A stretch of DNA of 64,000 bases from Leptospiraceae bacterium (lineage in GTDB: Bacteria > Spirochaetota > Leptospiria > Leptospirales > Leptospiraceae): the NCBI GenBank assembly GCA_016711485.1, contig JADJSX010000013.1, forward strand, positions 86,889 to 150,888, in the 5' to 3' direction. The translations under genes were made by a program, and so were the position numbers. The notes under the pieces were generated by a model that worked only from the letters and a program-made list of their open reading frames with translations, did not search any database and had not been told where the DNA came from. This document shows positions 13,000 to 63,830 of the stretch, piece by piece; the first letter of the stretch is position 1, and every line of letters starts with the position of its first letter.

Positions 13000-13075
13000 G
13001 CATAATTCATATTACCCAATTAAATTCTATAATTTCCTTTGTTGCGTAACGTCAGTTATTAAATATTCCGTCACC
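13000..13075 (-). other. degenerate minus-strand copy of the small-ORF/hairpin element family (5' portion only; ATG mutated to ATA)
   Basis: Its reverse complement reads ...taataactgacgttacgcaacaaaggaaattATAgaatttaattgg, matching the conserved upstream box (ttattaactgacgttacgcaaaa), the RBS and the start region of the copies at 55390 and 63545. It abuts the STAS gene stop. Confidence 0.3.
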
Positions 13076-13407
13076 TAAAACGATGCCAATGCTTCATTCA
13101 CTGTATCAAAGATTTCAAAATTACTTTGCATCTTCGTTTGTCTAAATACGTTCTTTGACTCCAGACTAACGTTCGCTAATTTAATTCGAATTTCACGCTG
13201 CTGACATTCAAACAAAAGATTTACCAACATTCCAAGACCAGATGAATCAATAAATGTAACTTTTTCCAGAGAGATAATTATTTTTTTATTCTCACTTTTT
13301 AGTAATGTCCTTAAAAATTTTTTAATCGGAGGCGCTGAATACAAGTCAATCGCTTCTATCAATTCAACCACATCTACACCATTTACTTCTTTATGTATAT
13401 AACTCAT
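13075..13407 (-). CDS. STAS-domain anti-sigma-factor antagonist (SpoIIAA/RsbV-like)
   Basis: 110 aa containing the ISLEKVTFIDSSGLGMLVNL core typical of STAS domains. Confidence 0.75.
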   Translation of the reverse strand: MSYIHKEVNGVDVVELIEAIDLYSAPPIKKFLRTLLKSENKKIIISLEKVTFIDSSGLGMLVNLLFECQQREIRIKLANVSLESKNVFRQTKMQSNFEIFDTVNEALASF

Positions 13408-13452
13408 TTTATTTATTTCCTCTTTTAATTTTAAAATTCTAACATATCTGGT

Positions 13453-13656
13453 CTAACTTTCAAATATGCGTCTAATATTGATTTTGCTCGTTCCTTTTTT
13501 TTCAATTATTTTTGTCTGTAATAAAGAATCTAATTTTTGGAGATTCGAATTTATCGAATAATGATTGTAAATCGACAAATCCTTTTCTTGAATGTATTTA
13601 TTTATTTCAGAAATATCATCCTGCCTAAAATAAAAATTAATCCGTTTGCTTTTCAT
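13453..13656 (-). CDS. hypothetical small protein (67 aa)
   Basis: ORF with a 4-bp ATGA overlap with the upstream KGG gene. No recognisable domain. Confidence 0.35.
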   Translation of the reverse strand: MKSKRINFYFRQDDISEINKYIQEKDLSIYNHYSINSNLQKLDSLLQTKIIEKKGTSKINIRRIFES

Positions 13657-13868
13657 GAATTCGAATCCTCATTATTGTAACTATGAAACTCAGGTTTCAT
13701 TCCATAACCCTCTCCTACTTCCTCTATGGTTTTTCGCTCGCGGATAACAGGAATTCCACTTTTAGTTTGTTTACCAACCTGATGAATTTCTACCTCTTTC
13801 CCTTTTTCTTGGTGTTTAATACCACCTTTTCGTCCATAGGGATTAGGGATATTCTTGTCTTCACTCAT
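13653..13868 (-). CDS. KGG-repeat general stress protein (71 aa)
   Basis: PYGRKGGIKHQEKGKE matches the KGG stress-protein repeat. The gene sits upstream of the STAS gene. Confidence 0.55.
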   Translation of the reverse strand: MSEDKNIPNPYGRKGGIKHQEKGKEVEIHQVGKQTKSGIPVIRERKTIEEVGEGYGMKPEFHSYNNEDSNS

Positions 13869-14074
13869 AGATTTGTCTAGAATAAAATTGCGTTTTTGAT
13901 TATAGGATAGAATTTATAAATACATAGTATTTGTTTAGCTGATTGGATATATTCAACATGAACTTGACGTAAGCAGATGCGTTACTTGATCAATTAAAAA
14001 TTAGAGGCTAACTCCCAATACCCGTTAGTAGAAATAGCCTTATGATTTTTTAAAAACCACTTGTCATAAATATA

Positions 14075-14250
14075 CTAACTCACCTTACGCAAAATTGGTA
14101 ATTTATGGAAAGAAGGAAAATCATGAGAATATTAGATAAAGCTAATAAATTAATGAATAAGCAGGTTTGGGCGGCAGCCCAAGTCGCCGACAGGCTCCAA
14201 ATCTCTCACCTCAACGCGCTTGCGCGTAAGGTGAGATACTAAATATTTTT
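14075..14250 (+). other. small-ORF/hairpin element copy A; includes a candidate 39-codon ORF at 14123..14242
   Basis: Conserved upstream box (ctaactcaccttacgcaaaattggtaattt), RBS aaggaaaatcATG, and ORF MRILDKANKLMNKQVWAAAQVADRLQISHLNALARKVRY*. The 3' hairpin tctcacct-caacgcgcttgcgcgt-aaggtgaga contains the stop codon and is followed by a T-rich run. Confidence 0.35.
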
Positions 14251-14259
14251 CCTATCGTA

Positions 14260-14895: not shown

Positions 14896-14905
14896 TAATT
14901 CAGTT

Positions 14906-28803: not shown

Positions 28804-31800
28804 TCATTTGATTTCTAACTCTTTTTTAAATTTCAAAATTCTTATTTCCTCGGGATCGAGTTTAATACAATCGTCTAAAATCACTTTGGCTCTTTCCATT
28901 CTTCCCAATCCTTTGTAAGTATCAATTAAATTCATAAGGTTGTCTAAATGCTCGGGGCGACGCATTCGAAATCTCTCGCCGAAATCAACCGCCCTTTCCA
29001 ATTTGCCAACCTGTCTTAGTGCATAAGAAACATCATACATATATTCAGATAAATGCGGATAATCGGAAATAACCTTTATACCATACTCAATTACATTTGG
29101 GAAATCTTTTTTTGCTTTGTATTCTTCTAGCTTTTCCAGATCAGCTTCGAGTTGGCTTGAATCCTTACTCCCTCCTTTGAAATGAATTTTAAGTAGAGAA
29201 AGATCATCAATTAATTTACCAGTATTTGAAATTTCTTCCTGAATTTTTTCTAAATCACCATCTGCTATTTTGATATGATTTAAAAATAAGTTTTCATCCT
29301 GATTAATAATCTCATATCCTTCTGAATCTTTTCCAATGCATATATCATCTCGTCCGTCAGAGCCAATTATAACAATATCATCCGAATGCAAAGAAAAAAC
29401 AGAAACGGAGATACTTCCCATTTGCCCCTGTGTCCCGAGCTTGGTATAATGTTTTGGATTTTCTATGAAACTTGCGAGTCCATCGCGATAGAGTGCAATA
29501 GGAGGATGCTCTGCATTCATATAGTACATCGTTCCTGTTTGCTCATCGACTAATCCAAACACAGCGGACATTAGCATCGATCCATCAAATCCTTCAAACG
29601 ATTTATGCATTTCAATAAACGCATTCTTAAGCCATCTCTCTGGATAAACAGTCTTTCCATAATCAGTAGCTTTTGTTCTTTGTATGATCGACTTAAAAAC
29701 AGTGCCTAACACCAATACTCCGCCGGCACCTTGAATCGACTTACCCATTGCATCCCCGTTTAAGAATACGGTATACTCTTTACCCTGCAATTCCATATTC
29801 TCAGCAATATTAATATCTCCGCCTAATTCGTATTCGTTTCTGCGGAAAATAAATGTTTTCTTTTGTTTAATAAAAAAATCAATCCCCACGTTTTTACTAA
29901 ATGCATTATTCTGTCCTAGAGGCTCAATGAGAAGTGTATTCAAAAAATAATCCCCGTCTTGTTGTTCTTTGAGTCCACGGACTTCGACGAGTGCTTGATT
30001 TAGATCGCGAGTTCTCTCTTCTACTTTTTCTTCTAGGTTAGCATATAACAATGAGTTTTCTACACTCACCGCAATCTGAGAAGATAAGACTTTTAGTATT
30101 TCTACTCTGTCTGGTGTAAAAGCATCTGTCGTAAGGTTATTTTCCAAGTAAACCACTCCCACTAAGTTTCCCTGGTTGATGATGGGATAACAGAGAATAG
30201 ACTTTGGTTGTCTTTTTACTACGTAAGAATCATTCGTAAACGCCCCTTTCTTCATCGCGTCATTTAACAGAATAATTCCCTTGGTTCGAATTACATAATT
30301 TACAATCGCGGAGGATAATTGTGATTTGTCCTCCAAAGGCTTTGCTTCTAATACCGTAATTGTGTCCGTATTTGCATTTCCTTCTGCTTCAATAATCCAG
30401 TTCTGATTTTCTTTTAGAATAAAAAATCCTCTTTCTGCTCCTGCGTTTTCAAATAGAATTTTCATCATCTTTTTTAGAAGTTTTCCTAAATGGATTTCAC
30501 CGGATATTGCTTGGGATGCTTTTACGACTGTGTTCAAATCTAGTAGAGTTCCAGTTGCGCTTGCATTTGAATTAGAGCTAACACTAACATCTTTCGCAAA
30601 TTCCTGTTTCGCATGACGCTTCAACTGTGGATATTTTTCTTCAAGCTGTTTTACCTTTGGCTCGCAGCCCCATTTTTTATAGGCGTAGTGGGCTTCTATT
30701 AAAAATATATTCGCAATTTGATCTTCTTCTTTTTCTAGCCACATCTTCGCTAAAAATTCGTTCGCCAGTGCTTCTTCTAAAAGGTACTCGTGTTCTTTCG
30801 CTAATGCGATCGCTTTTTTAAGTTCTTGTCTCGCTTTTTCAAAATCCCCCATTGAGTAAATCAAAAGCCCGTTTACGATATGGTATTTATGCCCGTAGTT
30901 CGCAGGACAATTCTCTGCCCAGACTTTCATACGTTCTTGGTTCTTTTGGATTTGTTCCAGATACTTAGTCTTATCCTCTTCGGATGAATCAGGTAATTCC
31001 AGAAGTGAGAGGCAAGAAAGAGAATCCCAGAAATTATGCTCAGCAACAAACATCATTCCAAAACATCCGCCTTCGTGTGGCTCCCCTTCTCTCGCATAAC
31101 GGTATGCTTCTAAAGGAGAACCAAAGAGGTAATTCAATGTTAGCTTATTCACATAATAATTAAAGAGTGTAGTTGAGTTTTTCGTCTCTTTCCAGATAGA
31201 GACAATTTCCTTTTCATTGAAAATATCTCCATTCATTTCCATTAGACTTTTTCCTAATCCTTGCAAAATTATGGACATTTCATAGTTGAGGCAAAACATA
31301 TGCTTTGGATCTTCTTGTTTTAATTTAGCAAAGTTAGAAAGAAATTTTGAAAAACTCGAACTTACTTCCGAAAGATTTTTCCGCATAAGCAAAGATTGAA
31401 AATTAAAATGGTTCGTGGAATAACCAGCATTCAAGAAATCACCTGAATCCATACCAGCTTGTATACTTTCTAAAAAGTAAGGCAGATCCAATCTGGCATG
31501 TTCTCTCCAATGGTTATTCATACAGGCAAAAAAGAAAAAACCTGCGCACTTGAGATTTTTTGCATTTAACTTTTCGATTATTTTGATTCCAAGCTTACCT
31601 AGTTTGTTTCCAAGTTCATAGTTCCCGATCCCTGAACCCATAATTATACCGTACAATATAAATGCCAGACCTGATTCCTTAGCAAGGCTATTATCCTCTA
31701 AAGTTAGGTTTACCATTTTTAAAACGGTCAATGGAAAAAGACTGGGTAATGTTATATAGGCAGGAACGATACTCACAGCTAGGATTCGCGTGATTGCCAG

Positions 31801-34644: not shown

Positions 34645-37023
34645 TTACATATTAAGTTCATCTTTTAATTTTAGAAGCCTTTCATCTTGCGAATTCAACT
34701 TTAAACTATCCTTTAATATTACCTTTGCCCTGTCTTTATTGCTATTCTTTAAATAGGCATCCACTAGGTTTACAATATTTTCTATATTTTCAGGTTCTCT
34801 AAGTCTCACGCGTTCTCCAAAATCAATTGCCAAAACATAATTTTCTAGAAAATTGTAGGCATACGAGATTTGAAAAATGTAGTCTGTTAAATGCGGATAA
34901 TGTAGAATAACTTCTTTTCCTAGTTCAATTATCTTCTGATATTCTCCGGCTTGCTTATGTTGTTCTAATAACTGTAACGATTCCTCTAAATTAATTCGAT
35001 CTTGAATGGGGTATTCTTGAAAGATAATTTTTAAAAGAGAAAGATCATCCATAAATTTACCATTGGACGCAATAGTTTGATAAATTGTAGACAAATCCCC
35101 GTTACTCTGTATTAGAGATTTTAAAAATAATCTCTCATCAGGGTTAATAATATCATAGCCTTCCTTTGGATCGACACCTAAAATTATATCATCCTTACCA
35201 TCAGAACCCATTATTACTACATCCCCTGGTTTAAGAGAAAAAAGAGAGATATGAATACTATCTGTTTGCAAGGGCGTTCCAAGCTTCGTATACTGCTTTA
35301 AATTTTTTAAAAATTCCGGGACTCCGTCACGATATAATACCATTTCAGGATGGTCTGCATTTAGATAATACATAGTTCCTGTCATTTCATCGATGAGTCC
35401 AAATACCACAGAGACAAGCATTGTTCCATCAAATGTCTCGAATGTTTTATGCATTTCAATGAAAGCGTTTTTTAGCCATCGCTCTGGATGGGTATTTTCA
35501 AATAAACTTGTGCCAGATGTCCGCTGCAGAATGGACTTGAAAGACGTTCCAAGAACAATCGCTCCACCCGCGCCCTGGATAGACTTTCCCATTGCATCTC
35601 CATTTAAGAATACCACATAACGTCTCCCTTTTAATACAATTGTATCGGAGATATTCAAATCGCCACCCAACTCATATTCATCTTTTCGAAATACAAATTG
35701 TTTCTTTTGCCTGATAAAAAATTCAACGGTTACATTAGGGCTAATAACGTTATTCTGTCCCAATGGCTCGATCAAAAGAGTATTTAAAAAGTAATCCGCA
35801 TCTTGCTGTTCCTTTAATCCACGAACTTCCGTAAGTAGACTCCGCACTTCGACTAATGCCTGATTCAAATCCCTAGTTCGTTCATCGACTTTCTCTTCCA
35901 AGTTTTCATATAACAATGAATTTTCTACAGAGACTGCAATTTGAGAAGAAAGAATTCTTAAGATTTCTACCCTTTCAGAAGTAAAGGCATTTGTTGTAAG
36001 ATTGTTTTCTAAGTAAACTACGCCTGTCAAATTTCCTTGGTTTAAAATGGGATAACAAAGAATAGACTTAGGCTTATTTGACTTCACATACATATCATGT
36101 ATAAACATCCCATCGTTTACAGCATCATTCAATAAAACCATCGCCTTGGCTCGAATAACATAATTTACTATATTAGGCGAAAGTTCCCAAAGAGATGAAT
36201 CACGATTATCCGCACTAATTGAGTCTAGTGGCTTTGCTTGCAATACTCTAATTTGATTTGTGCTCGCATTTCCTTCTGCCTGTATAAGCCAGACACCTTT
36301 TGACTTATACATAAAAAAACCCCTCTCTGCTCCCGCACTTTCAAAGAGGATAACAAGCATTTTTTCCATTAATTTTTCAAGTTCAATTTCACCTGAGATG
36401 GCGCGAGAAGCCTGAAGAACTGAATCCAAATCAAGGCGATTTCCAGTTGAAGTGGTGCTATATGTAATTTCTGATTTATCCAAACCGTATTTATTCAAAT
36501 ATATATATTTTCTTTCTAATTCTTGCAGTTTTAATGGCAGACCCCATTTAGAGTAATAGGAATGGGCTTCTGTAATATGAACTTTTGCGTAAATTTCTTT
36601 TCCCTGAGAATCCCAGAGATTTCCTACCAGTTCATGGGCTAATGCAAGTTCTAAAATTGCATCATTTGCTTTACAGTCTTCGATTGCATTATCAAATAAA
36701 GATATGGTTTCTTTCTTATTCCCGTTAAGCTTAGAAACCTCTGCTTTTAAAATTAGGGATTTATGATTGTATTCCACAGGATTATCTTTTGATAATGAAT
36801 CGAGTCTTTCTATATTATCCTCAATCTCTAATAAAAAATCCTTTTTTAATTCGTCGGAAACGAAATTAGAATTGTGTAGAAGGCTAAGTGAGAGAGAATA
36901 ATAGAAAATATCCTCAGGGCTAAATTTTACTTTTTTTTCTTCGGTTCGAATAGATACGATATACTCGTTTAATTTCTTTACATCTCCTGAAAAATAATGA
37001 AGTAATAATTTAGTTAATTGCAT
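34645..37023 (-). CDS. TPR / GAF / PP2C (SpoIIE) phosphatase protein (792 aa), paralogue of the C-terminal two-thirds of 28804..34575
   Basis: Long stretches are near-identical to the fused paralogue (NLTGVVYLENNLTTNAFTSERVEILRILSSQIAVSVENSLLYENLEEKV...GLKEQQDADYFLNTLLIEPLGQNN). It starts 4 bp after the upstream gene's stop. Confidence 0.85.
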   Translation of the reverse strand: MQLTKLLLHYFSGDVKKLNEYIVSIRTEEKKVKFSPEDIFYYSLSLSLLHNSNFVSDELKKDFLLEIEDNIERLDSLSKDNPVEYNHKSLILKAEVSKLNGNKKETISLFDNAIEDCKANDAILELALAHELVGNLWDSQGKEIYAKVHITEAHSYYSKWGLPLKLQELERKYIYLNKYGLDKSEITYSTTSTGNRLDLDSVLQASRAISGEIELEKLMEKMLVILFESAGAERGFFMYKSKGVWLIQAEGNASTNQIRVLQAKPLDSISADNRDSSLWELSPNIVNYVIRAKAMVLLNDAVNDGMFIHDMYVKSNKPKSILCYPILNQGNLTGVVYLENNLTTNAFTSERVEILRILSSQIAVSVENSLLYENLEEKVDERTRDLNQALVEVRSLLTEVRGLKEQQDADYFLNTLLIEPLGQNNVISPNVTVEFFIRQKKQFVFRKDEYELGGDLNISDTIVLKGRRYVVFLNGDAMGKSIQGAGGAIVLGTSFKSILQRTSGTSLFENTHPERWLKNAFIEMHKTFETFDGTMLVSVVFGLIDEMTGTMYYLNADHPEMVLYRDGVPEFLKNLKQYTKLGTPLQTDSIHISLFSLKPGDVVIMGSDGKDDIILGVDPKEGYDIINPDERLFLKSLIQSNGDLSTIYQTIASNGKFMDDLSLLKIIFQEYPIQDRINLEESLQLLEQHKQAGEYQKIIELGKEVILHYPHLTDYIFQISYAYNFLENYVLAIDFGERVRLREPENIENIVNLVDAYLKNSNKDRAKVILKDSLKLNSQDERLLKLKDELNM

Positions 37024-49817: not shown

Positions 49818-52800
49818 ATGAGATTCAATTTCCAAATATTTGTACTATTCATTTTATTTTTTTTTCTATTTCCCAATTTTTCTAAACAAATTCTAAGTAA
49901 TCCAATTCCGCAAGTTAATACGAAAGAAAGTATTTGTGAAGAAAAATTAAATAATCTCCTTGAATCTTTTGAAAATGGGAAAAATTTATTTTCTAAAGGT
50001 AAATACTCTGAAGCGCATAGATGTTTTCAGATATTTGTACAAAATATAAATAACAATCAAGACAATATGCAGAATAGAAAACATATACGCGAAGCTTATA
50101 TTTATAAAGGAGCAATTGAAACTTTATTGGGAGATTTTCCTAGTTCAATAAAAAGTTACCAAGATGCTTTAACCGCGATATATTCTCCTCCTATCAATAA
50201 TAAAGAAATTGAGTCTATTGATACTAAAAAAGAATTAGCCATGATTTATAATAATATTTATATTTCCGCCGCACATGACAAACAAGAAAAACTAGCAAGC
50301 GAATACAAAAAAAAACATGATAAAATAAGGAGTTTGGAAAAGGAAAAGGGAGCGACTAACAAATTGTATGCCGATGATTCCTTTGAACGTGGTTCTATTT
50401 ATTTTGGAGATGGAATTTTTAATTTAGAAAAAGGACTTAAGTTACGTCAGTCCCCAGATAAAGAAAAGGAAATGGTTGAGACTTTAGAGAAGGCAGTTCT
50501 AGCTTTAGAATATGCAGAAAAAGAATACTCTAAAAGTGAAGAAAGTGTAGCTAAAAATGTAATGTTAATTACTACATTGTTAAACGATTCCGCTGGTTTA
50601 GAAGTTAGCGGCAAACCAGAAGAAGCCCAAAAAAAATTCAAACTAGCTATCGACAAAAGAGAAACGTCTAAAGTGGAAGATAAGTATTTGGAAAGGACAT
50701 CGCAAACATTATTAAAATTAGTTGAGATAAAAAGAGAAATGAATAAAATTACTCCAGGAAAATACAAAGAAGAAGAAATACAAAAACAAAGTAATTATGC
50801 TAGAAAAATTCAAGAGTTCATATACCCAGACCAAAAGGATTGTAATAATCTACCGAAAAGAACATGGAATCTTCAGTTAGCTAATTATTATTTGGGAGAG
50901 GCTAATGATTTATTCAACAAAAACCGATTTGATGATTCACTCGTAAAAGCAGATTGCGCAGAAAAATATTTACAACTACCCGAAAAAGAGGATATTTATT
51001 ACAATCAATACTCGGAAGGTAGACAGTTTTTAATCAAAATCTTTACAGTTCAGAAAAATTTTTATAAAAAGAAAAACTTACAAAAGGACAAACTCAGAAA
51101 ATTAAATAGGATTTTAGATTTAATTCGAGAATATTATCTTTATTCTTACTCAATTGGATCAGATAAAGAAGATGAAATCAAAAGAGAAAAATACAGAGAT
51201 TTTTTTGAAGAAACTTTTTTGAGTTATACAAGAAAGAAAGAAGATATTAAGGATGCATTTATAGTTTCAGAAAAGTTTAGAAGTATTTCCATTTCTGATT
51301 TTATTAATTTAGACAAATCATTGTCTGTTCCTAACATAAATTCAGAAGATAAAAAGAAATTAATCAAACTAAAAAAAGAAATGAATCAAACAGCCGCTCA
51401 AAGTATGGCTTTTCGATTTTTGGATTTAGATTTAGTAGATATTTCACAGAAAAATAATAGTTTAACTTCCGAGTTCGAAAAACTGGATATTAAATTAAAA
51501 AAAGAAAATCAAGAATATAAAAAATTAAGGTACTCCTCGGATTTAAATTTTAAAGTGGATGATTTAATATCCTCCCTTAGTGCGGCTAACAAAGTTATGC
51601 TACATTTCTTTTTTACTGATGTAGAAAAAAATTCGGGAAACCTCCATGTTACAATTTTGGGTTCCAAGACAAAAGCTTGTTCAGGAATTTGTTCTTATTA
51701 CTACAAAGATATAATTGAATCCGAGTTAAGTAAAAAAATTCTATTTTATAAATTGTTATTATCAATAAATCCAAGAGAAATTAAAGGAGTGGCTGAAAAT
51801 TTATTAGTTATGGTAGATAAAGGTAATATTTCTGTACATAGCGATAAAGAAGAAGAAGTAAAAACATTTATTGGATCATTAGAAAAATCTAAAACAGAAA
51901 AAAAGTTAGATCATCCTTGTCCTGTGAAAAATGAAAAGTTTAATAAATGTGAGATTTACATTATCCCTAAAGACAAATATCCAATTTGGATCAAAGAGTT
52001 ATCCCAAGAGTTACATACACAATTAATCAGTCCCCTCTATCAAAATAAATATATCCAGCCAACATCAGAAAAAGAAATTGGGGAACAACTTGTAATTGCT
52101 CCTGATAAGTCTCTTTATTTTCTACCGTTTTCTGCCTTGATAGATGAAAATGGAAAATATTTTTTAGAGTCCCATGCACATTCCTATACTTTGTCTGCAG
52201 ATGTTTGGTACTATAATCACAAAAGATATATCGGAACGGAACATACAACCTTAGAGGGATTAATTGTCGGTGCATTCCAAGATTTTGAAACCCTACCAAA
52301 CTATTGTCAAAATGAATCATTAAAAGGACCAATAAAATTTATGACTTGTGTATTATCTGAATATCTCTCCGTACATGGGGAAGAAATGGATCTTATTAAA
52401 AAAACTTTCAATTCTGTAAAAAAAGAAATTATAGATATTCAAAAAAATATTCCTTCCAAGTTTTTAGACAACGCTGTTTATACACTGAAAGGCAATCTAG
52501 CGACAAAAGAGAACTTACAAGATATTTTGACTCTGAGTGAAAGTAGATATGTGCGTTATTTGCATATTGTAGGGCATGGAGTTAGTAATTCTTTAAGACC
52601 GGGTTTAAATTCTATTTTACTTTCTCCCGAATCATTGGAACCAAACCAAGCAGATGAAAAAAAAGAAATCGAAAATAGTTTATCTAGATTTTTAACGGAA
52701 GCAGATGTGATGGGAATGAACTTTTCTTCGGAATTAGTTACATTAAGCAGTTGTAGTTCGGCGACTGGTTTTGAATCGGACGCAGAGGGTAATATTGGTT

Positions 52801-53057
52801 TGCCTAGAGCCTTCATTATGAGTGGAGCTAGAAATGTATTAGGACCACTTTGGAACGTTAGTTCAACTAAAACAAAGGAGATAATGGGAAAATTTTATCA
52901 AACCGTAAATAAACTTAGAGCAGAAGAAAAATTAGGAGAAAGAAAGTCTGAAAATGAAGCCTTAATTTTACAAAATACATTAAACGAATTTCGGAAAAGA
53001 GAAGATCTTCATAATCATCCCTATTATTGGGCTGCGTTTGTCATTTATGGAGAGTAA
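49818..53057 (+). CDS. secreted TPR-like protein with a C-terminal CHAT protease domain (1079 aa)
   Basis: Signal peptide; long helical-repeat N-terminal region; C-terminal CHAT signature with the His/Cys dyad (RYLHIVGHGVSN...ELVTLSSCSSATG...GARNVLGPLWNVS). Confidence 0.8.
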   Translation: MRFNFQIFVLFILFFFLFPNFSKQILSNPIPQVNTKESICEEKLNNLLESFENGKNLFSKGKYSEAHRCFQIFVQNINNNQDNMQNRKHIREAYIYKGAIETLLGDFPSSIKSYQDALTAIYSPPINNKEIESIDTKKELAMIYNNIYISAAHDKQEKLASEYKKKHDKIRSLEKEKGATNKLYADDSFERGSIYFGDGIFNLEKGLKLRQSPDKEKEMVETLEKAVLALEYAEKEYSKSEESVAKNVMLITTLLNDSAGLEVSGKPEEAQKKFKLAIDKRETSKVEDKYLERTSQTLLKLVEIKREMNKITPGKYKEEEIQKQSNYARKIQEFIYPDQKDCNNLPKRTWNLQLANYYLGEANDLFNKNRFDDSLVKADCAEKYLQLPEKEDIYYNQYSEGRQFLIKIFTVQKNFYKKKNLQKDKLRKLNRILDLIREYYLYSYSIGSDKEDEIKREKYRDFFEETFLSYTRKKEDIKDAFIVSEKFRSISISDFINLDKSLSVPNINSEDKKKLIKLKKEMNQTAAQSMAFRFLDLDLVDISQKNNSLTSEFEKLDIKLKKENQEYKKLRYSSDLNFKVDDLISSLSAANKVMLHFFFTDVEKNSGNLHVTILGSKTKACSGICSYYYKDIIESELSKKILFYKLLLSINPREIKGVAENLLVMVDKGNISVHSDKEEEVKTFIGSLEKSKTEKKLDHPCPVKNEKFNKCEIYIIPKDKYPIWIKELSQELHTQLISPLYQNKYIQPTSEKEIGEQLVIAPDKSLYFLPFSALIDENGKYFLESHAHSYTLSADVWYYNHKRYIGTEHTTLEGLIVGAFQDFETLPNYCQNESLKGPIKFMTCVLSEYLSVHGEEMDLIKKTFNSVKKEIIDIQKNIPSKFLDNAVYTLKGNLATKENLQDILTLSESRYVRYLHIVGHGVSNSLRPGLNSILLSPESLEPNQADEKKEIENSLSRFLTEADVMGMNFSSELVTLSSCSSATGFESDAEGNIGLPRAFIMSGARNVLGPLWNVSSTKTKEIMGKFYQTVNKLRAEEKLGERKSENEALILQNTLNEFRKREDLHNHPYYWAAFVIYGE

Positions 53058-53312
53058 TTATTTGTCCTTTTTATCTCCAATTGGAAAAACAAATGACTTT
53101 TTCTTATTTCTGTAGTCAGCCCGATTTTCCGAATCAACTTTACAGTTATTATCCGAATTGTCCCAAATGCAGGCAAATTTGGAATCAATTGTAAAGTTTA
53201 AACAAACTTCTTTCTCTTTTTGTTGGTTACATTTTTCTTCGTTTGTTTCGGAAAATAAAAAAGTAGAAGAAACAAACATTAAAAAAGCGAGTAATCGTAC
53301 AATCATTTTCAT
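53058..53312 (-). CDS. small secreted Cys-rich protein (84 aa)
   Basis: Signal peptide (MKMIVRLLAFLMFVSSTFLFS) and five Cys. It is convergent with and abuts the CHAT gene. Confidence 0.5.
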   Translation of the reverse strand: MKMIVRLLAFLMFVSSTFLFSETNEEKCNQQKEKEVCLNFTIDSKFACIWDNSDNNCKVDSENRADYRNKKKSFVFPIGDKKDK

Positions 53313-53408
53313 ACGTCACCTCCTAAGGTTCGTTCATTCTTGACTATAATTATCAGGAATGTCAACTACTTTATTGACGAATTAATTATAAAAAATTAAC
53401 AAGGTGAA

Positions 53409-55169
53409 ATGAAATCTTTATTTTTCCTTTTTTGTTTTTCCTTTGGAATATTTGCCCAAACTAATCTAAATCAAAATACAAATTTGTTTTCACCAAATGA
53501 GTTTGATAAAGCGGTATTAACATTGAATATCTATGATATTCAAAATAATAGTTTTTATTTAGAAATTGATTTTAGTAAATACCCGGAAGAAAAGCCAAAT
53601 GTTTTACCTAAATTTCTTTTGGGTCAAGCACTTGATTTTAATAAGTATTATTGGGAAGTAAAAGAAAAAGAATTTTCTTTTTATAGAGACGAAACGCAAA
53701 TACCCGTAATTTTTTTAATGAATGAAACAGTTCCTCTAGAAGTTTCCTCTGTTTATTGCATAAGAGAAAGCAAAAAGGTTTATTTATTTTTATATGGGGG
53801 AAGTTCTTCTGATATTCAAGAAGTAAAAAAAGTAAGTGTTAGTTTATATGAAAAAGATAGTAAAAGTTTTTTAACCAAAATAAAAGAAATTAATATTCCA
53901 GAAAGTATGAAATATGCGAGACCACCAGTAGTTTTAGATAGTATTGTAAAAGGTGTGTACCCTGGAAAACCTATTAGTTTTTTGGGATATAACTTGGATA
54001 AAGTTTCTAGAATTTATCTAATGGATAAAAAGTTAGGTAGTAATGGTTTAATGAATGAAGCCTATTTACAATACGAAGATAGTGGAATTACAGTAAATCC
54101 GATTTCCGAAGCGGATAAGGAGTTTATATCCCCCAGTAATAAAGACCAAGTGAAGGAAAAATTAACATTTTCTTTGCATGGTGATTACAATAAAATGTTA
54201 AATGATAGTAGGGATGTAAGTTTTGCCGGAAAATATTTTGGAGTAAAACTAGATGCCATCCTTTATAGTAATGGTCGTGTTTCTAGTCCCTTTGAAATCA
54301 CTCTATTATCCAGTCACTGGAAAAAATATGCGATATTCTTTAGTGTATTTATCATATTTATATTAGTTGCATTAGTTGGGATTATCACACGAAAATTATT
54401 ATACCTCCCCAATCTTTTAATTGATACAAATACGAACTCTTATTCTCTAAGTGCACTTCAAGCTTTTTGTTGGACGGTTGCATTATTATTTAGTTATGGG
54501 TATATAGCATTTTGCCGCGCCATTATTATTCAAAGTGGGGAGATTCCTGAGTTTCCTTCGAGTTTGCTAATCTTAATGGGAATTAGTTATGGGGGATTAC
54601 TCGGAGTATCCTCTATCCAAAAATTTGTTCCTCAAAAAGCACATAGGAGAAAAGAAGCTAGGTTAAGAGATCTTTTTTCTGTTGGGGAAGGAGATATTAA
54701 TTTGGCAAGAGTTCAGTTATTTGGATTTAATTTACTGGTTTTAATTGTTTATATTGTAAATATTCTAATCATTGATCCACTCAATGAATTACCGGAAGTT
54801 CCAATGACTTTAGAAGGACTTTTAATTGGTAGTCATGCAGGTTATATTGGCTCCAAGTTAGTCAATGACAAAGTATTTATCAATCTCATTTATCCTCTTC
54901 AAGTATTCACTAAAACGGAAGAACAAAAATTAATTCTAATTGGTGGTGGATTTAAAGAAGGAATTAAAGTGATCCTAGATGGAGAAGAACCGAGAGCGGC
55001 TAAGTTCATTAGTCCGAATCAAATAGAATGTATTCTTCCTGTTTTGCAAAATTCAGGCAGTAAACATCTCACCATTGTTTCTAGTGACGGAAGTATGACT
55101 GAATACATTTCGCCAATTGAGATAATAGAAAAGAACCAAAAAGTTGAAATAGATTCAACTTCCACTTAG
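53409..55169 (+). CDS. membrane protein (586 aa): signal peptide, extracytoplasmic N-terminal domain, ~5 TM helices, C-terminal Ig-like (IPT/TIG-like) region
   Basis: Hydrophobic segments (YAIFFSVFIIFILVALVGII, LQAFCWTVALLFSYGYIAF, LLILMGISYGGLLGV, LFGFNLLVLIVYIVNILII, LLIGSHAGYIGSKLV). C-terminal LILIGGGFKEGIKVILDGEE...IECILPV resembles an IPT domain. Confidence 0.6.
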   Translation: MKSLFFLFCFSFGIFAQTNLNQNTNLFSPNEFDKAVLTLNIYDIQNNSFYLEIDFSKYPEEKPNVLPKFLLGQALDFNKYYWEVKEKEFSFYRDETQIPVIFLMNETVPLEVSSVYCIRESKKVYLFLYGGSSSDIQEVKKVSVSLYEKDSKSFLTKIKEINIPESMKYARPPVVLDSIVKGVYPGKPISFLGYNLDKVSRIYLMDKKLGSNGLMNEAYLQYEDSGITVNPISEADKEFISPSNKDQVKEKLTFSLHGDYNKMLNDSRDVSFAGKYFGVKLDAILYSNGRVSSPFEITLLSSHWKKYAIFFSVFIIFILVALVGIITRKLLYLPNLLIDTNTNSYSLSALQAFCWTVALLFSYGYIAFCRAIIIQSGEIPEFPSSLLILMGISYGGLLGVSSIQKFVPQKAHRRKEARLRDLFSVGEGDINLARVQLFGFNLLVLIVYIVNILIIDPLNELPEVPMTLEGLLIGSHAGYIGSKLVNDKVFINLIYPLQVFTKTEEQKLILIGGGFKEGIKVILDGEEPRAAKFISPNQIECILPVLQNSGSKHLTIVSSDGSMTEYISPIEIIEKNQKVEIDSTST

Positions 55170-55389
55170 ACTTCCTTGCGAATTTTGGGGTATTTATCAT
55201 ATGAACTTATTTAGTCATTTCTATTTTAATTACCCTTCCATTTCCACTCTAGAAAATTTCTTTTTATTTTTAGCAAGCTCTCTATTTTTATTTTTTATTC
55301 CAATACAGGAAAAACCTATCTGCGGCTAAAGGCAAATATTTTCTATAAACAGGGAGACTTCCAAAAAGCTGCAGAGGTTTATTCTAAAT

Positions 55390-55565
55390 TATTAACTGAC
55401 ATTACGCAAAATTGATAATTTACGGAGCCAAAGATGATTTTGAGAATATTAGAGAATGCTAATGAATTAATAAATTCAATAGCCTGCGGCAGCAAGCCCA
55501 CCGCTAGGTGCAAACCTCAAGCGGAAGCTGGACTCACCTTGCGTAAGGTGAGTTATTAAATGTAT
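55390..55565 (+). other. small-ORF/hairpin element copy B; candidate 41-codon ORF at 55434..55559
   Basis: Upstream box ttattaactgacattacgcaaaattgataattt, RBS ggag, and ORF MILRILENANELINSIACGSKPTARCKPQAEAGLTLRKVSY*. The 3' hairpin ctcacctt-gcgt-aaggtgag is followed by ttattaaat. Confidence 0.35.
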
Positions 55566-55579
55566 ATCCTGGGGAATCC

Positions 55580-55819
55580 ATGTTCTTGTTAGCTGCTGCA
55601 AAGAGTTTTAGGCTAAGTAACCAACTTGAATTAGCCGCAGACTATTCAGAAAGATTGAAATTAAGAGAGCCTATGAATCTAATTAACCTAATTCTACTGA
55701 TTGAGATTTACATTGACTTAAAAATGTATGCAAGAGCCAAAAAGATATTAGACAATGCATTGTATGTAGACAGTGCCAATACAAAACTTTCTGAATTAAA
55801 AAAACGACTTGCAATATAA
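55580..55819 (+). pseudogene. C-terminal fragment (79 aa) homologous to the TPR-like tails of the PP2C-family proteins 28804..34575 and 34645..37023
   Basis: ADYSERLKLREPMNLINLILLIEIYIDLKMYARAKKILDNAL...LSELKKRLAI aligns with VDFGERFRMRRPEHLDNLMNLIDTYKGLGRMERAKVILDDCIKLD...ILKFKKELEIK and IDFGERVRLREPENIENIVNLVDAYLKNSNKDRAKVILKDSLKLN...LLKLKDELNM. Confidence 0.5.
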
Positions 55820-59846: not shown

Positions 59847-60018
59847 CTAAAACTTCCCCTCTCTCTCCAGAATTATCTTCAACAATTCCGTATCATTCTT
59901 CTCCTCGGCAATCTTCTTGGCTTGGTCATTGTATTTTTTGGCGTTAGACTTATCGCCTAACTTTAGGTAGATCTCGGCGAATGTGTTGAGATAATTTGGG
60001 TATGCGTTATTCCTTTTT
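59847..60018 (-). pseudogene. C-terminal TPR-like gene fragment truncated at its 5' end by the REP cluster
   Basis: The minus-strand frame ...SNRQKRNNAYPNYLNTFAEIYLKLGDKSNAKKYNDQAKKIAEEKNDTELLKIILEREGKF* has no in-frame ATG. The frame opens at a stop codon inside the REP tandem repeat. Confidence 0.45.
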
Positions 60019-60020
60019 TG

Positions 60021-60130
60021 TCTATTAGATTAGAGGACGTCTGCCGGTTCTATTAGAGGACGTCCGCCGGTTCTATTAGAGGACGTCCGCCGGTTCTATT
60101 AGAGGACGTCCGCCGGGCGTCCCTACGGGA
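60021..60130. repeat. tandem array (~4 x 23 bp, tctattagaggacgtccgccggt) of GC-rich REP-like palindromic units abutting the RAYT stop codon
   Basis: Read directly. The unit contains the palindrome GGACGTCC. The array ends in cgtccctacggg, which provides the TAG stop of the transposase. Confidence 0.75.
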
Positions 60131-60761
60131 TTAATCGTTCTAAATCGTTCTCCCAGTTTTTGGGATTTTTTTGAATGTATGTCTTAATATAATAAAATTC
60201 TTTTTCATCTCGTATGATATGGTCATGGTAGCGAGATTGCCAAACAGTTAATCCAGAAGTACGTTGAATTTCATTAATGCGTTTTGTAACAACAGATTTG
60301 AATCCTGCAAAAAAAGACGATATTGATTTCGGCAAATAATTTTTATTATTTCCGCCCCGTAGGGACGCGCGGCGCACGTCCTGTATACGATAAATCACGT
60401 CCTCTATACATTTAACGTTCTGTTTTTCGTTATCGTTTGGAATTTCGTTATCGTTTGGAATTTCAATTATAGGACGTCCGCCGGACGTCCCAACGTGGGT
60501 AATAATGGCGTGAATGTGATTGGGCATAATGATATATTCCGCACAGGATAATTCCTTTCGAATTTCAAAGGATCTTAACCATTCTTCTTCGACTATTTTG
60601 CCGAGATCATTTAAAACCATTTTCGAATCAGAAATTTTACCAAATAAACGTTCTCTGTTTTTCGTAACGACTGTAACAAAATAATACCCTGCGCTCGAGT
60701 AATCAAAACCTTGCAATCTGGGCGATTTTCTATTAAAAAATTTTTGTCTATATAGTGTCAT
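60123..60761 (-). CDS. REP-associated tyrosine transposase (RAYT; IS200/IS605-like Y1 HUH transposase), 212 aa
   Basis: HUH motif IIMPNHIHAII and catalytic-Tyr motif QSRYHDHIIRDE, with a YYFVTVVTKNRERLF N-terminus. The region between the motifs is expanded by REP-like GC-rich segments (encoding VGTSGGRPI and RIQDVRRASLRGG) and an 18-bp tandem duplication encoding IPNDNE twice. Confidence 0.8.
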   Translation of the reverse strand: MTLYRQKFFNRKSPRLQGFDYSSAGYYFVTVVTKNRERLFGKISDSKMVLNDLGKIVEEEWLRSFEIRKELSCAEYIIMPNHIHAIITHVGTSGGRPIIEIPNDNEIPNDNEKQNVKCIEDVIYRIQDVRRASLRGGNNKNYLPKSISSFFAGFKSVVTKRINEIQRTSGLTVWQSRYHDHIIRDEKEFYYIKTYIQKNPKNWENDLERLIP

Positions 60762-60927
60762 TTTTGCAATTTATAAAATAGCTATACATTTGTATACATT
60801 TTTAACATATCCAGAACAGCTGTATTATTTCGATAAAGGGAAAAAATTAGTTAGAAATTATATTTTATTTAAGAGGCGTAAATTATATCGGGGATACGTA
60901 TTTTTTTTAAGAAAATTTTTAGGACGT

Positions 60928-61020
60928 GCAAATATTTTTAGGACGTCCGCCGGACGTCCCTACGGGAATTCAATAAATTTTTCAATATCCACGTAGGGAC
61001 GCGCGGCGCACGTCCTATAT
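60928..61020. repeat. REP/BIME-like GC-rich palindrome cluster upstream of the RAYT
   Basis: taggacgtccgccggacgtcccta is a perfect palindrome. The inverted pair cgtccctacg ... cgtagggacg lies 26 bp apart, and gtagggacgcgcggcgcacgtcc is shared with 60358-60382 and with the kinase-gene insertion. Confidence 0.7.
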
Positions 61021-61274
61021 AGGATAAATCACGTCCTAAAAACGATAAATCACGTCTAAAAATAATAAATCACGCAATCTATACGATACAAAAAAAACAA
61101 ATCGTCTAAACAACAAGATCAATCGAATTTTTAAAAATCGGGAGATGTTCGTATTTTGTCATAAAAATCTTTCCGCCTGACGGCGGATCAACTAACAAAT
61201 TCGAATTCCTTCTTTCGTGTCAAACAATATCGAACATGTGAACATCTTCATTGAAAGCGAACAAACGTTTTGGA

Positions 61275-61318
61275 CTACTGCATAAAAACGTGTCCACTTT
61301 TTATGCAGTAGTCCATTA
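61275..61318. other. strong stem-loop: 17-bp perfect inverted repeat GGACTACTGCATAAAAA / TTTTTATGCAGTAGTCC with a 9-nt loop
   Basis: Read directly. It lies ~200 bp downstream of the minus-strand gene 61513..62067. Confidence 0.6.
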
Positions 61319-61512
61319 TTGGTTATCCATATTATGCAATACTTTTTTTTGAGTCTTTTCCAATTGAGATCATTGGGTATAATTTTAAGTTCCGTCAATG
61401 TCTGCGGGTTCCACGATCGAGAGGTTCATTTTACAGTATTTCTTTTGTGACATTTACAAATTAAGGATCGATTTTTGAGAATCGACCCTGTCGGCTATCG
61501 TTGAAAAAATCT

Positions 61513-62067
61513 TTATTTCTTAATTCGATGGTCTTCACCTTTTTTACTAACGTTCTTACCTGCGGGATGTTCCTCGCCGGACTTCATCTTTCTTAGTATT
61601 TCAGAAGCATTTTGTCTTACACTAACTGAATTGTCATTTTCTACTTTTTTAAGTGTAGATTCTACTCTTGCTTTATTTCCTTTGTAAAACCCTCGCACAT
61701 AACTCGAAGTAGCCATTGCTCGGTACGATTCATTGATAGAATTATCCTGAATTCGATTTTCCAGAAAATCTAAAACACTTGAATCTGTGGAAAAATTACT
61801 GAGTAAACCGAATGCCTTCATTCTCAGACCAGCTCTCTGGTTAGAGTCATCAGCAATTACTATCAAGTAGGCTTGCGGATTTGTTGGTTCAATCGAGCGT
61901 ATCCCAGCTAACATATCTACTGAATCTGGGTGCCTAATCTCTGCAATGTACATGCGAATTTTTTCCAACTTTTCTTGGTTAATAGACTGTGCTTGCAAAG
62001 AAGAATAGATTGCAAATAGGATGATGCCAATTACTAAGAGTTGCATTTTTTTTATTTTATATTTCAT
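61513..62067 (-). CDS. hypothetical secreted protein (184 aa), possibly HEAT-like repeats
   Basis: Signal peptide (MQLLVIGIILFAIYSSLQA). Helical repeats. No firm domain assignment. Confidence 0.5.
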   Translation of the reverse strand: MKYKIKKMQLLVIGIILFAIYSSLQAQSINQEKLEKIRMYIAEIRHPDSVDMLAGIRSIEPTNPQAYLIVIADDSNQRAGLRMKAFGLLSNFSTDSSVLDFLENRIQDNSINESYRAMATSSYVRGFYKGNKARVESTLKKVENDNSVSVRQNASEILRKMKSGEEHPAGKNVSKKGEDHRIKK

Positions 62068-62090
62068 TTTAAATTTCTCCTAAATTCCTT

Positions 62091-63440
62091 TTAATAAACA
62101 AGTGGATGTCTTCGTAAGACCCATCCCTGCTCTCCAGTGAATCGAGACTGATCAAATCCAGCCGTCCCTGACCAGAACATAACATTTCTAGCCCCTGAAT
62201 TATTTTCCGCAGTTCCATCGCAGTTTACCAAACTGACTGGGTTTTGCGTACAACGTGGGGTTTCAGAGATTGGATCTCGGTTGTAAACACTTTGAGTTGA
62301 ATTATAGTTGCTCTCCGCCAAATGATAAAGCCCAAGCCAGTGCCCTGCTTCATGAGCGATTGTTTCCCCCATTAAAGTCAGCTCTGCATCTGTGGGAGTG
62401 GCTCCGGGAGTTCCTAAATGAGTGTCAAATACTACAACCATAGCTGAGTTTCGAGTCCCGACCTTTCCGGGTAATCCGGGTATTCCCCCAGACACACCGA
62501 GAACCCCACTTACAGTATCATTTTTTACAAAAAAGATATTCAACGCATCTGCTTTTTCAACGGATGCATTATTTGCAAATAATCCACCTAAAGAGCCCGC
62601 GGCGACAGAATCTCTATCTAAACTAGTGAGAGTTAAGTAGGCAGCATTATTTAGAGTTGTCGAGGTTATTACCGGTCTTATTCTTACACTGTTTTGCGTA
62701 TATAGGGTAGTTAATCTAGTGATGGCAGTCGCAATTCCAGCCTCGGAAGCAGCCGGATTGGATCCAGCAACAAATATAAGGTGAACATTTATCTTCTTTT
62801 CAGTAGACCAGATTTTACTCATACCTCTTTGGCTATGATCGGAGGTTGAAGAATCCGGCAAAAAACTATTTTCTTCCGACGTTGCTGGTATTAGAGAACG
62901 AACTTTACGAACAGTTACAGGTAAAGAATTCGAACGAACGATAGGCACAAAACCTAACGCTGCATTAAATGCCGATGATATACTGACTGGATTACCGTCA
63001 GATAATAAAGAGGTGTAAAGAGAACTATTGCTTCCATACCAATGCATGACAGTCGCAGTCTGTTCCCCAGTGCTGTTTCGTGTATAGAACAACGAGGCCC
63101 CTTCGTATTGAATAAAATCCAATCCCACACCGCCGGAAGTTTGATTTTGTTCCACTTGTACAATCGCAGTCGGATTACTCGGACCAGTTCCAGAAAACGT
63201 AACATCCGGTATAGTATATCCTGCGATGCCTGCTCCAAAATAATCTGTAATTGGCGAAGAAAACGCACTGGTAGTTGTTTCCGAAAACTCATACTTGGGT
63301 CCGGAAGATGCACTTCCTGTTAATGCCGATAGCAAAAGCAGGCTTGTAAGTGTGTTGTCTTTTTTCTTAGCTCTACATCCGGGAAGTCCAAATAAAAAAA
63401 CTAACAAAACAAAGATTATTTTTATCCATTTATTTTTCAT
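62091..63440 (-). CDS. lipoprotein zinc metalloprotease (metzincin-type HExxHxxGxxH)
   Basis: Lipobox LFGLPGC, followed by a catalytic motif IAHEAGHWLGLYH and a downstream conserved Cys pair. Confidence 0.7.
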   Translation of the reverse strand: MKNKWIKIIFVLLVFLFGLPGCRAKKKDNTLTSLLLLSALTGSASSGPKYEFSETTTSAFSSPITDYFGAGIAGYTIPDVTFSGTGPSNPTAIVQVEQNQTSGGVGLDFIQYEGASLFYTRNSTGEQTATVMHWYGSNSSLYTSLLSDGNPVSISSAFNAALGFVPIVRSNSLPVTVRKVRSLIPATSEENSFLPDSSTSDHSQRGMSKIWSTEKKINVHLIFVAGSNPAASEAGIATAITRLTTLYTQNSVRIRPVITSTTLNNAAYLTLTSLDRDSVAAGSLGGLFANNASVEKADALNIFFVKNDTVSGVLGVSGGIPGLPGKVGTRNSAMVVVFDTHLGTPGATPTDAELTLMGETIAHEAGHWLGLYHLAESNYNSTQSVYNRDPISETPRCTQNPVSLVNCDGTAENNSGARNVMFWSGTAGFDQSRFTGEQGWVLRRHPLVY

Positions 63441-63544
63441 TTTTTAACCTCTTAATCACTGACTATAGTATAGATTTACCCTTAGTGATTTTACCAAAAT
63501 ACAACTTTGAAGAAATTTTGTCATTTTTTATTTCAATAGCTAAT

Positions 63545-63720
63545 TATTAACTGACGTTACGCAAAAAAGGAAAATTATGAAGTTTGAAGATAAATTAAGA
63601 ATATTAGAAAATGCTAATGAATTAATAAATTCAATAGCCCGCGGCAGCGAGCCCACCGCTAGGTGCAAACCTCCCGTGGACGCAGGACTCACCTTGCGTA
63701 AGGTGAATTATTAACTTACG
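63545..63720 (+). other. small-ORF/hairpin element copy C; candidate 45-codon ORF at 63577..63714
   Basis: Upstream box ttattaactgacgttacgcaaaa, RBS aaggaaaattATG, and ORF MKFEDKLRILENANELINSIARGSEPTARCKPPVDAGLTLRKVNY*. It carries the 3' hairpin ctcaccttgcgtaaggtga. Only the GC-rich core differs from copy B. Confidence 0.35.
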
Positions 63721-63830
63721 TTACACATAAAAGGAAATTATGGAATTAAAAGTGAAATTCTCGATTTTAGAAGAATCTAATGAATTAATAGCGATAGCGT
63801 AAGGTGAGTTATTAAATATTTTTAAACGCA
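63721..63830 (+). other. small-ORF/hairpin element copy D, in tandem with C; it lacks the GC-rich core (candidate 20-codon ORF at 63740..63802)
   Basis: It begins directly at C's terminal ttattaa: cttacgttacacataaaaggaaattATG, ORF MELKVKFSILEESNELIAIA*, then gcgtaaggtgagttattaaatattttt. Relative to C it has a 75-nt in-frame deletion. Confidence 0.3.

Follow-up and report, generated by a model that had tools for sequence, protein, structure and literature searches.

Miniature transposons with IS701-type ends in the genome of a Leptospiraceae bacterium

Introduction

A stretch of 64,000 nucleotides from a Leptospiraceae bacterium (GenBank assembly GCA_016711485.1, contig JADJSX010000013.1, positions 86,889 to 150,888 of the forward strand), referred to below as the window, contains several copies of a short modular unit built around an AT-rich block, a GC-rich core and a 3′ hairpin. 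An initial annotation of this DNA interpreted the units as diversifying mini-genes, each preserving a reading frame from ATG to TAA, or as products of cassette-like recombination. The question raised by this locus is therefore whether such units are small protein-coding genes, structured RNA cassettes or mobile elements. The analysis presented here indicates that they are very probably non-autonomous miniature transposable elements with inverted repeats (MITEs) that carry the ends of an IS701-family insertion sequence (IS), because the same ends and the same 7-bp duplication also bound transposase-bearing ISs and dozens of short derivatives of 47–364 bp. The finding is largely ordinary, in that a repeat family had been correctly spotted and wrongly interpreted, and is best described as a MITE family with IS701-type ends.

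Copies of the element in the window

Four copies (A, B, C and D) and a degenerate minus-strand copy were found by sequence reading and pattern search where the initial annotation had placed them. Their features are given below by window position, with nhmmer E-values for the full elements; IRL and IRR denote the left and right terminal inverted repeats, and ORF an open reading frame.

14072–14078, plus strand: left 7-bp target-site duplication of copy A, ATACTAA, with the same heptamer again at 14236–14242
14079–14235, plus strand: MITE copy A, 157 bp (E 2.8e-28); 14072–14242 with the heptamers on either side
14079–14092, plus strand: IRL of copy A, CTCACCTTACGCAA
14126–14158, plus strand: AT block of copy A
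within 14079–14235, plus strand: GC core of copy A, A-type, with the hairpin TTGGGC-GGCA-GCCCAA
14204–14236, plus strand: extended 3′ hairpin of copy A
14224–14235, plus strand: IRR of copy A, GCGTAAGGTGAG
14236–14242, plus strand: right target-site duplication of copy A, ATACTAA, containing the TAA that closes the 45-codon ORF 14105–14242
55389–55395, plus strand: left target-site duplication of copy B, TTATTAA
55396–55552, plus strand: MITE copy B, 157 bp (E 4.4e-47); 55389–55559 with the heptamers on either side
within 55396–55552, plus strand: IRL of copy B, CTGACATTACGCAA
55434: downstream ATG used in copy B, which has ACG at the ancestral ATG position
55443–55475, plus strand: AT block of copy B, in which the hairpins are also present
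55541–55552, plus strand: IRR of copy B
55553–55559, plus strand: right target-site duplication of copy B, TTATTAA, containing the TAA of the ORF
63544–63550, plus strand: left target-site duplication of copy C, TTATTAA
63551–63707, plus strand: MITE copy C, 157 bp (E 9.5e-47), hairpins present, with IRL CTGACGTTACGCAA and IRR GCGTAAGGTGAA at its ends
63598–63630, plus strand: AT block of copy C
63708–63714, plus strand: heptamer TTATTAA common to copy C (right) and copy D (left), the tandem junction
63715–63808, plus strand: MITE copy D, 94 bp (E 1e-13), with a degenerate IRL CTTACGTTACAC, the AT block, no GC core and IRR GCGTAAGGTGAG; its ORF stops at the TAA within the IRR
63809–63815, plus strand: right target-site duplication of copy D, TTATTAA
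13020–13062, minus strand: truncated remnant found by pattern search, with its body at about 13020–13055 and its heptamer at 13056–13062

The existence of a real modular repeat family, as first proposed, is borne out by motif counts. The window contains the 12-nt end motif GCGTAABGTSAR eight times, where dinucleotide-preserving shuffles predict 0.03, and the AT block four times, where 0.00 is expected. The 3′ hairpin CTCACCTT-GCGT-AAGGTGAG is likewise present as described in copies B and C, with an extended version in copy A. The remnant, read on the minus strand, consists of TTAATAA, the IRL CTGACGTTACGCAA and about 20 nt of the 5′ region, with ATA in place of ATG, and it lacks the AT block, the core and the right end. 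It is located just downstream of a STAS gene (13075–13407, minus strand) and is 94% identical over 35 nt to locus L157 (sequences outside the window are designated here by L numbers).

Each unit is bounded by terminal inverted repeats of 12–14 bp of the form CTSACNTTACGC(AA), present as CTSACNTTACGCAA at the left end and as TTGCGTAAGGTGAG at the right end, the conserved 5′ box being the reverse complement of the 3′ end. Outside these inverted repeats lies an exact 7-bp direct repeat. Copy A has ATACTAA in this position, and the other three copies have TTATTAA. The non-consensus heptamer of copy A provides the clearest case of a direct repeat, since an inverted form would read TTAGTAT on the opposite side. 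Terminal inverted repeats flanked by a direct repeat of fixed length are the signature of DDE-type transposable elements. The units, at 94–157 bp, are short and without transposase coding capacity (their longest ORFs, of 20–45 aa, show no transposase similarity), and they occur in multiple dispersed copies, namely four and a remnant within 64 kb, as is characteristic of MITEs.

Element ends and IS701-family transposases in other genomes

A scan for the end motif together with the heptamer, covering one genome per bacterial species, returned at least 120 loci from many phyla. These loci are often at contig ends, which is expected of a multi-copy repeat. The matches listed include Chloroflexi, Ignavibacteria, Chlamydiae, Legionella, Rickettsia, Campylobacterales, Bacteroidota, Acidobacteria, Planctomycetes, Cyanobacteria, Patescibacteria and Leptospiraceae; among them, the end sequence is accompanied by a TTAWTAA heptamer in about a dozen phyla (for example, L041 212–1331 and L065 202–1381). 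Pairing of left and right ends in the scanned loci revealed two size classes, one of 47–364 bp (52 cases) and one of 1102–1180 bp. The shortest non-autonomous derivative bounded by IS701-type ends measures 47 bp (L119 6200–6246), and tandems with a shared heptamer, similar to that of copies C and D, were also observed in other phyla (L092, L068 and L099).

The length of the flanking duplication was established from 59 end pairs in other genomes for which both flanks were available. In 35 of the 59 pairs, the two flanks match at exactly 7 bp, compared with at most one pair at each length of 4–6 and 8–10 bp and six pairs at 3 bp. In 16 pairs the heptamer on either side is TTAATAA and in 14 it is TTATTAA, and the heptamer repeats are therefore direct and not inverted. 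The heptamer is thus a 7-bp target-site duplication with a strong preference for TTAWTAA, and it lies outside the inverted repeat.

The long elements of 1102–1180 bp contain one ORF each, encoding a protein of 349–364 aa. These proteins, which belong to partner elements in other genomes and not to anything encoded in the window, score 326–333 bits on the NCBIfam model NF049921 ‘IS701 family transposase’ (cutoff 250) and also match the Pfam families DDE_5 and DDE_Tnp_1. The signature Y-x2-R-x3-E-x6-K is invariant in all eight transposases compared. Homologues of the transposase were detected by tblastn in 451 plasmid records. In an Acinetobacter schindleri plasmid, a gene annotated as ‘transposase’ lies within an element with the ends CTGATGTTACGCAG ... 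CTGCGTAACATCAG and the flanks TTATTTA/TTATTTA, while the Polaromonas plasmid pPNAP01 carries an element whose gene is annotated as ‘IS701 family transposase’, with the ends CTGATGTTACGCAG ... CTGCGTAACATCAG and the flanks TATTTAA/TATTTAA. A profile search of a protein collection returned more than 7,700 transposase homologues, mostly on contigs of 1.1–1.6 kb. The ends of the window units are shared with these transposase-encoding elements.

The Leptospiraceae subfamily and its mobility

The subfamily represented in the window was also detected elsewhere. The same AT block is present in three contigs of Leptospiraceae metagenome-assembled genomes (MAGs; L034, L060 and L064), a scan with the AT-block pattern identified further elements in metagenome contigs, and the nhmmer profile recovered subfamily copies at E-values from 1e-48 to 1e-14. 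A profile search with the peptide of the mini-ORF retrieved 70 predicted proteins of 29–104 aa, none of which is transposase-sized. An organism name is attached to 13 of the 70, in each case ‘Leptospiraceae bacterium’, and 12 of the 70 bear locus tags of one MAG.

One wastewater-type metagenome contig (L165) is 99.98% identical to window positions 50434–55682, including the copy B locus. Copies of the C type, 94–99% identical to copy C, are found in flanks unrelated to the window at three further loci:

L157: C-type copy, with a B-type copy 175 nt beyond it
L166: C-type copy with the duplication TTAATTA, followed by a second element, the heptamer being common to both
L167: C-type copy with the duplication TTAATAA, present as a single copy

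L166 and the window-matching contig L165 come from the same sample.

In L167 (226–450), the C-type insertion is located at the centre of a perfect AT-rich palindrome, which reads TTGTTATTAATAATAACAA once the element and one heptamer are removed. To judge from this case, insertion may favour sites that are palindromic or can form a hairpin, beyond the heptamer alone.

Truncated or rearranged copies were observed as well. In the metagenome contigs L150 and L152 (1–130), the 5′ two-thirds of an L123-type element is followed by unrelated sequence after ...CCCCAAATCCAGCA, so that the usual 3′ hairpin and right end are replaced; one of these copies is annotated as a 63-aa protein (P0010).

A possible empty site was sought at the orthologous peptidase locus of GCA_017996175.1 (L171), where neither the element nor the end motif is present in the 600-nt upstream region. 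The alignment of this locus with the window covers the gene and about 105 nt upstream, and breaks off no more than 3 nt from where the heptamer lies. The M43 peptidase of the window shares 73% identity with a protein labelled ‘Leptospiraceae bacterium’ and 34–38% with Leptospira proteins. The L171 locus is consistent with an empty site, its unalignable distal flank falling short of a clean filled/empty pair.

Proposed mechanism of insertion

These observations may be accommodated by the following model. An IS701-type transposase, supplied in trans, would bind both ends and excise or copy the element, which would then be inserted at a TTAWTAA-like heptamer via a 7-bp staggered cut. Repair of the stagger would duplicate the heptamer on either side. 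Each insertion would thereby regenerate the preferred target beside itself, and new copies would often adjoin old ones with one heptamer in common. The C–D tandem may be explained in this manner, since insertion would recreate the preferred target next to the element.

Several observations weigh against a MITE derived from an IS701-type parent. The 64-kb window does not encode a transposase of the IS701 type, and none of the best 120 of more than 7,700 transposase homologues is named Leptospiraceae. The interior of the MITE has no detectable similarity to the sampled ISs, the link consisting of the 12–14 bp ends and the 7-bp duplication only. Moreover, the AT block and four internal hairpins are conserved above the intervening sequence, with some compensatory changes, which is not what ‘junk’ between two ends predicts. 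Finally, the empty-site comparison uses a 73%-identical orthologue with an unalignable distal flank. Against these points stand the ends, the duplication and the dispersed near-identical copies, on account of which the MITE explanation is preferred with high confidence.

Interior of the element and a possible role as a structured cassette

The interior is composed of a conserved AT-rich block and a small set of alternative GC-rich hairpin modules. The GC cores, which had been said to differ completely between copies, proved to be a few discrete hairpin modules, each conserved across genomes: over 120 nt that take in the core, copies B and C share 92% identity, and the core of copy A is a separate module that recurs in other genomes. 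A consensus fold was derived from an alignment of 12 distinct copies and contains four hairpins:

Hairpin 1: TATTAG/CTAATG, inside the AT block
Hairpin 2: CGC-GGCA-GCG, or TTGGGC-GGCA-GCCCAA in copy A
Hairpin 3: CACC-GYTA-GGTG
Hairpin 4 (the 3′ hairpin): ACTCACC paired with the right inverted repeat GGTGAGT

The large inserts of the ‘variable core’ are located in the loops of hairpins 2 and 4, with the stems intact. The loop modules read as LMLRPLGSNIEFG, as GIARLKxSxQAMGG/DSLAEGERLSERGD, and as a 3′ module with its own ATCATTTCTTT/AAGAAATGAT hairpin. In all sequence examined, the GC modules were not found outside copies of this MITE, which speaks against their being independently mobile elements.

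Such an organization raises the possibility that the MITE serves, through co-option or by design, as a mobile cassette with a regulatory or RNA function, acting on neighbouring genes as a terminator, attenuator or transcript stabiliser, or as a small RNA. This proposal is compatible with the MITE explanation, and we consider it unlikely. The four hairpins are retained, as 94.9% of cells pair, compared with 27–36% when the partners are slid, and both sides have changed at four pairs, with the observed covariation score reached by 0 of 500 shuffles, a control known to over-call on related sequences. The loops take up the large inserts while the stems are left whole. However, most stems are invariant and hence of little weight in either direction, and the compensatory changes are few and map to two or three subfamily splits, so that hairpin conservation provides modest evidence. 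In MITEs, templated repair of quasi-palindromes can preserve or recreate hairpins in the DNA itself, without any RNA function. When copies are folded singly, their two inverted repeats pair, as those of any MITE should; the z-scores are −2.6 to −5.5 for full-length copies and −1.6 for copy D.

The evidence for a terminator is similarly divided. Read on the minus strand, copies B and C give a terminator-like score for hairpin 2 (the first GC hairpin) together with the AT block that comes after it, two pairs of this hairpin being G·T on the minus strand and A·C mismatches on the plus strand, but the 3′ hairpin of the plus strand is not called as a terminator. All examined copies are intergenic, and a start codon on the same strand lies 18 nt downstream of the end of copy A and 21 nt downstream of that of copy B. 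Across 18 loci, however, orientation with respect to the next gene shows no bias, with six in the same direction, five in the opposite direction and seven for which no downstream ORF was found. The C/D locus is among the seven, as the ATG at 63833 opens an ORF of 18 codons only. The initial annotation did not recognise the unit as a described family, and this holds, since a search of the whole window against Rfam 15 gave no match at gathering thresholds; even at E ≤ 1, a single AT-rich noise match was returned, to a trypanosome mitochondrial rRNA model (20.6 bits, gathering score 60).

Taken further, the Leptospiraceae subfamily could be a mobile structured cassette, either a bending or synapsis module for transposition, by which an element of 150 bp would bring its two ends into contact, or a portable terminator, attenuator or small RNA that would rewire the genes around each insertion, and the IS701-type group, given its strict 7-bp TTAWTAA target and its MITE offspring in about a dozen phyla, may constitute an undescribed pan-bacterial MITE superfamily; we give this extended proposal only a small chance of being correct. 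A functional cassette would fit the data because length variation is confined to hairpin loops and the stems carry compensatory changes. For the conserved AT block and hairpins, a cis-acting role in transposition and a role at the RNA level are each possible, with low probability.

The interior, specifically the ATG and first 20 codons, was also considered as a remnant of the N-terminus of the parent transposase (M..LLDLYSDYLISxFG), given a faint by-eye likeness between ILDKSNELIxSIA and LLDLYSDYLISSF. This origin is not supported: a profile–profile comparison of the MITE interior with transposase N-termini gave a probability of 0.2%, shuffle tests of the MITE peptide against 86 distinct transposase N-termini gave p-values of 0.15–0.94, and the nhmmer MITE profile recovered no full-length IS.

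Gene-like appearance of the units

The interpretation as genuine diversifying small-protein genes assumes that each unit has its own promoter, ribosome-binding site and ATG, and encodes an N-terminal helix, (K)LRILxxxNELIxSI, with a variable C-terminal part. Its appeal is understandable, as the AT block of every copy has one open frame, usually behind an ATG, many copies are annotated as hypothetical proteins by gene callers, and several module insertions are multiples of 3 (+33 and +36 nt). The last observation derives from a protein-based search, which is biased toward in-frame copies. In the window, the ATG-to-stop ORFs of copies A, B, C and D measure 138, 126, 138 and 63 nt, in agreement with the lengths first given except for copy A, for which 120 nt had been stated.

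The preservation of the frame from ATG to TAA is automatic, because the right inverted repeat and the heptamer stop every frame. The right end closes all three frames (GCG-TAA, AGG-TGA and TAT-TAA), with TAA and TGA stops coming from the right inverted repeat and a further TAA from the flanking duplication, so that any frame ends there. The TAA within ttattaa, taken initially as a conserved stop of the gene, thus lies outside the element: in copies A, B and C the ORF ends in the duplicated heptamer, and in copy D, as in L123 and L151, at the TAA of the inverted repeat. In L136, where the heptamer is TTATTTA, the ORF reads through into the flank.

Moreover, no reading frame is consistently maintained. 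The 70 predicted proteins include translations of one and the same 3′ DNA in all three frames (GTLVTHLA, ARWSLTLRKVS and GHAGHSPCVR), and likewise of an alternative 3′ module (THPNSIISFVKK, LTRTQSFLFKKEMI and SPKLNHFFCEEMIM), and the cores of L123-type and L136-type elements are offset by an indel of 2 nt. In place of the canonical ATG, copy B has ACG, L158 has AAG, L159 has AGG and the window remnant has ATA. A Shine–Dalgarno sequence is present in copies C and D and in the remnant and absent from most relatives. Variable sites in the AT block are distributed 9:5:11 over codon positions 1:2:3, with no clear third-position excess, in a count from 11 related sequences with too few independent changes to be decisive. 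The residues ARGSEP and ACGSKP covary perfectly in the 26 peptides with that stretch, which is accounted for by one base pair of a hairpin having changed from C-G to T-A.

Nor are promoter boxes shared among the copies. The boxes TTAACT and GATAAT, reported as lying 17 bp apart in all copies, are in fact spaced by 16 nt and found in copy B only, with no match at that position in copies A, C and D. A sigma-70 promoter was rejected on the same basis, the one match being in copy B and the match counts per region being no higher than in shuffles.

The gene-like look is a by-product of the architecture of the element end and insertion site. The AT block is by chance open in one frame behind an ATG, the GC modules rarely hold stops, and the right end closes every frame. 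The mini-gene proposal is accordingly considered highly improbable, and cassette recombination is likewise not supported, given the three frames, the loss of the ATG and the identity of the ends with IS701-family terminal repeats. The initial annotation had itself allowed that inconstant frames, copies without the ATG or unit ends coinciding with those of a known IS would point away from mini-genes, and all three were found, leaving an ordinary miniature transposon.

A second repeat system in the window

Assignment of the units to another class of short repeats, either repetitive extragenic palindromic (REP) sequences or bacterial interspersed mosaic elements moved by a REP-associated tyrosine transposase (RAYT), or attC cassettes of an integron, was rejected on sequence and architecture as almost certainly wrong: the units are short, hairpin-bearing and sometimes tandem, and a RAYT-like ORF with a weak Y1_Tnp match lies in the same window (60123–60761), but the repeats around that ORF differ in sequence (GGACGTCCGCCGGRCGTCCCTACGGGA) and no MITE modules occur there, REPs lack the paired terminal inverted repeats and fixed 7-bp target duplication that these units possess, the copies are spread over 50 kb and not arrayed beside an integrase, and the ends, as read from the sequence, do not fit RYYYAAC/GTTRRRY attC core sites.

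The RAYT-like ORF belongs to a region (60006–61060) of separate interest. It encodes 212 aa on the minus strand, with a weak match to Pfam Y1_Tnp (IS200-like; E 6e-4), and is surrounded by GC-rich palindromic REP-like repeats, GGACGTCCGCCGGRCGTCCCTACGGGA, being apparently interrupted at about 60345–60500. A 23-bp unit of these repeats occurs four times in tandem at 60029–60116, with inverted copies at 60356–60385 and 60992–61019 and a diverged copy at 33538–33565. The RAYT-like ORF and its repeats are a second repeat system in the window, unrelated to the MITE.

Other repeats and duplications

Three further regions of the window contain repeated sequence. At 656–811, a (CCATTAA)x8 microsatellite (759–811) is located just downstream of an ORF of 1643 aa (806–5737, minus strand), and the segment 656–759 matches the metagenome contigs L127 (twice) and L153 at 75–79%; to judge from these matches, the segment is probably another dispersed repeat. 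Three giant minus-strand ORFs adjoin one another at 28804–34575 (1923 aa), 34645–37023 (792 aa) and 37028–40855 (1275 aa), and have in common many segments that are 72–87% identical, at a spacing of about 5.9–6.4 kb, which points to a large block of multi-domain genes having been duplicated in tandem. Between 45063 and 47250, a 60-nt segment is present three times (at 45063, 45903 and 47191), the second and third copies being 87% and 68% identical to the first, and the small ORFs of 80–160 aa around these segments may be a small paralogous gene cluster.

Significance and comparison with known systems

No general principle is altered by this family, which represents a well-understood kind of element in a lineage and IS group for which no prior description was found. 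No earlier account of these ends, of IS701-derived MITEs or of this Leptospiraceae family came to light in a search whose coverage stopped short of most subscription journals and ISfinder, and literature queries with the end sequences returned unrelated primer matches only. In Leptospiraceae MAGs, the annotation turns these units into dozens of ‘hypothetical proteins’, and such spurious genes disappear once the units are recognised as MITEs. They also break metagenome assemblies, several contigs starting or ending inside an element, and their recognition explains such contig ends. In addition, they mark recent transposition in an uncultured Leptospiraceae lineage and illustrate how a strongly preferred heptamer target, regenerated by insertion, may yield tandem arrays. 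On a broader scale, a single IS701-type end sequence has given rise to short derivatives in many phyla.

Among known elements, the closest in kind are the DDE-derived bacterial MITEs, such as Correia/NEMIS of Neisseria and MITEAba12 of Acinetobacter (PMC6382973). The window family resembles these in its size of 94–157 bp, inverted repeats, fixed-length duplication, absence of a transposase, many dispersed intergenic copies, ends shared with an IS and incidental small ORFs in annotation. It differs in that its ends and 7-bp TTAWTAA duplication are those of an IS701-family group, unlike the families that mobilise those MITEs, and in that its interior, an AT block with hairpin modules inserted in loops, has no detectable descent from the parent IS.

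The IS701-family ISs recognised by NF049921, for example those of Polaromonas naphthalenivorans pPNAP01 and of Acinetobacter plasmids, have CTSAYNTTACGC at both ends and a 7-bp AT-rich duplication (TATTTAA, TTATTTA or TTAWTAA) in common with the window elements, which are ten times shorter and lack the transposase. The best-studied relative is ISAba11. This IS is reportedly flanked typically by 5-bp repeats, with limited target specificity. Inverted repeats of 13 bp and, in one case, a 6-bp duplication have been described for ISAba11 (PMC7519801).

With regard to modular organization, the window family is also reminiscent of the pneumococcal BOX elements, sharing with them conserved end modules, variable internal hairpin modules, an intergenic location and a possible effect on neighbouring transcripts. 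BOX elements are boxA-boxB-boxC modular repeats without clear transposase-matched terminal inverted repeats and without a fixed target duplication, whereas the Leptospiraceae family described here possesses both.

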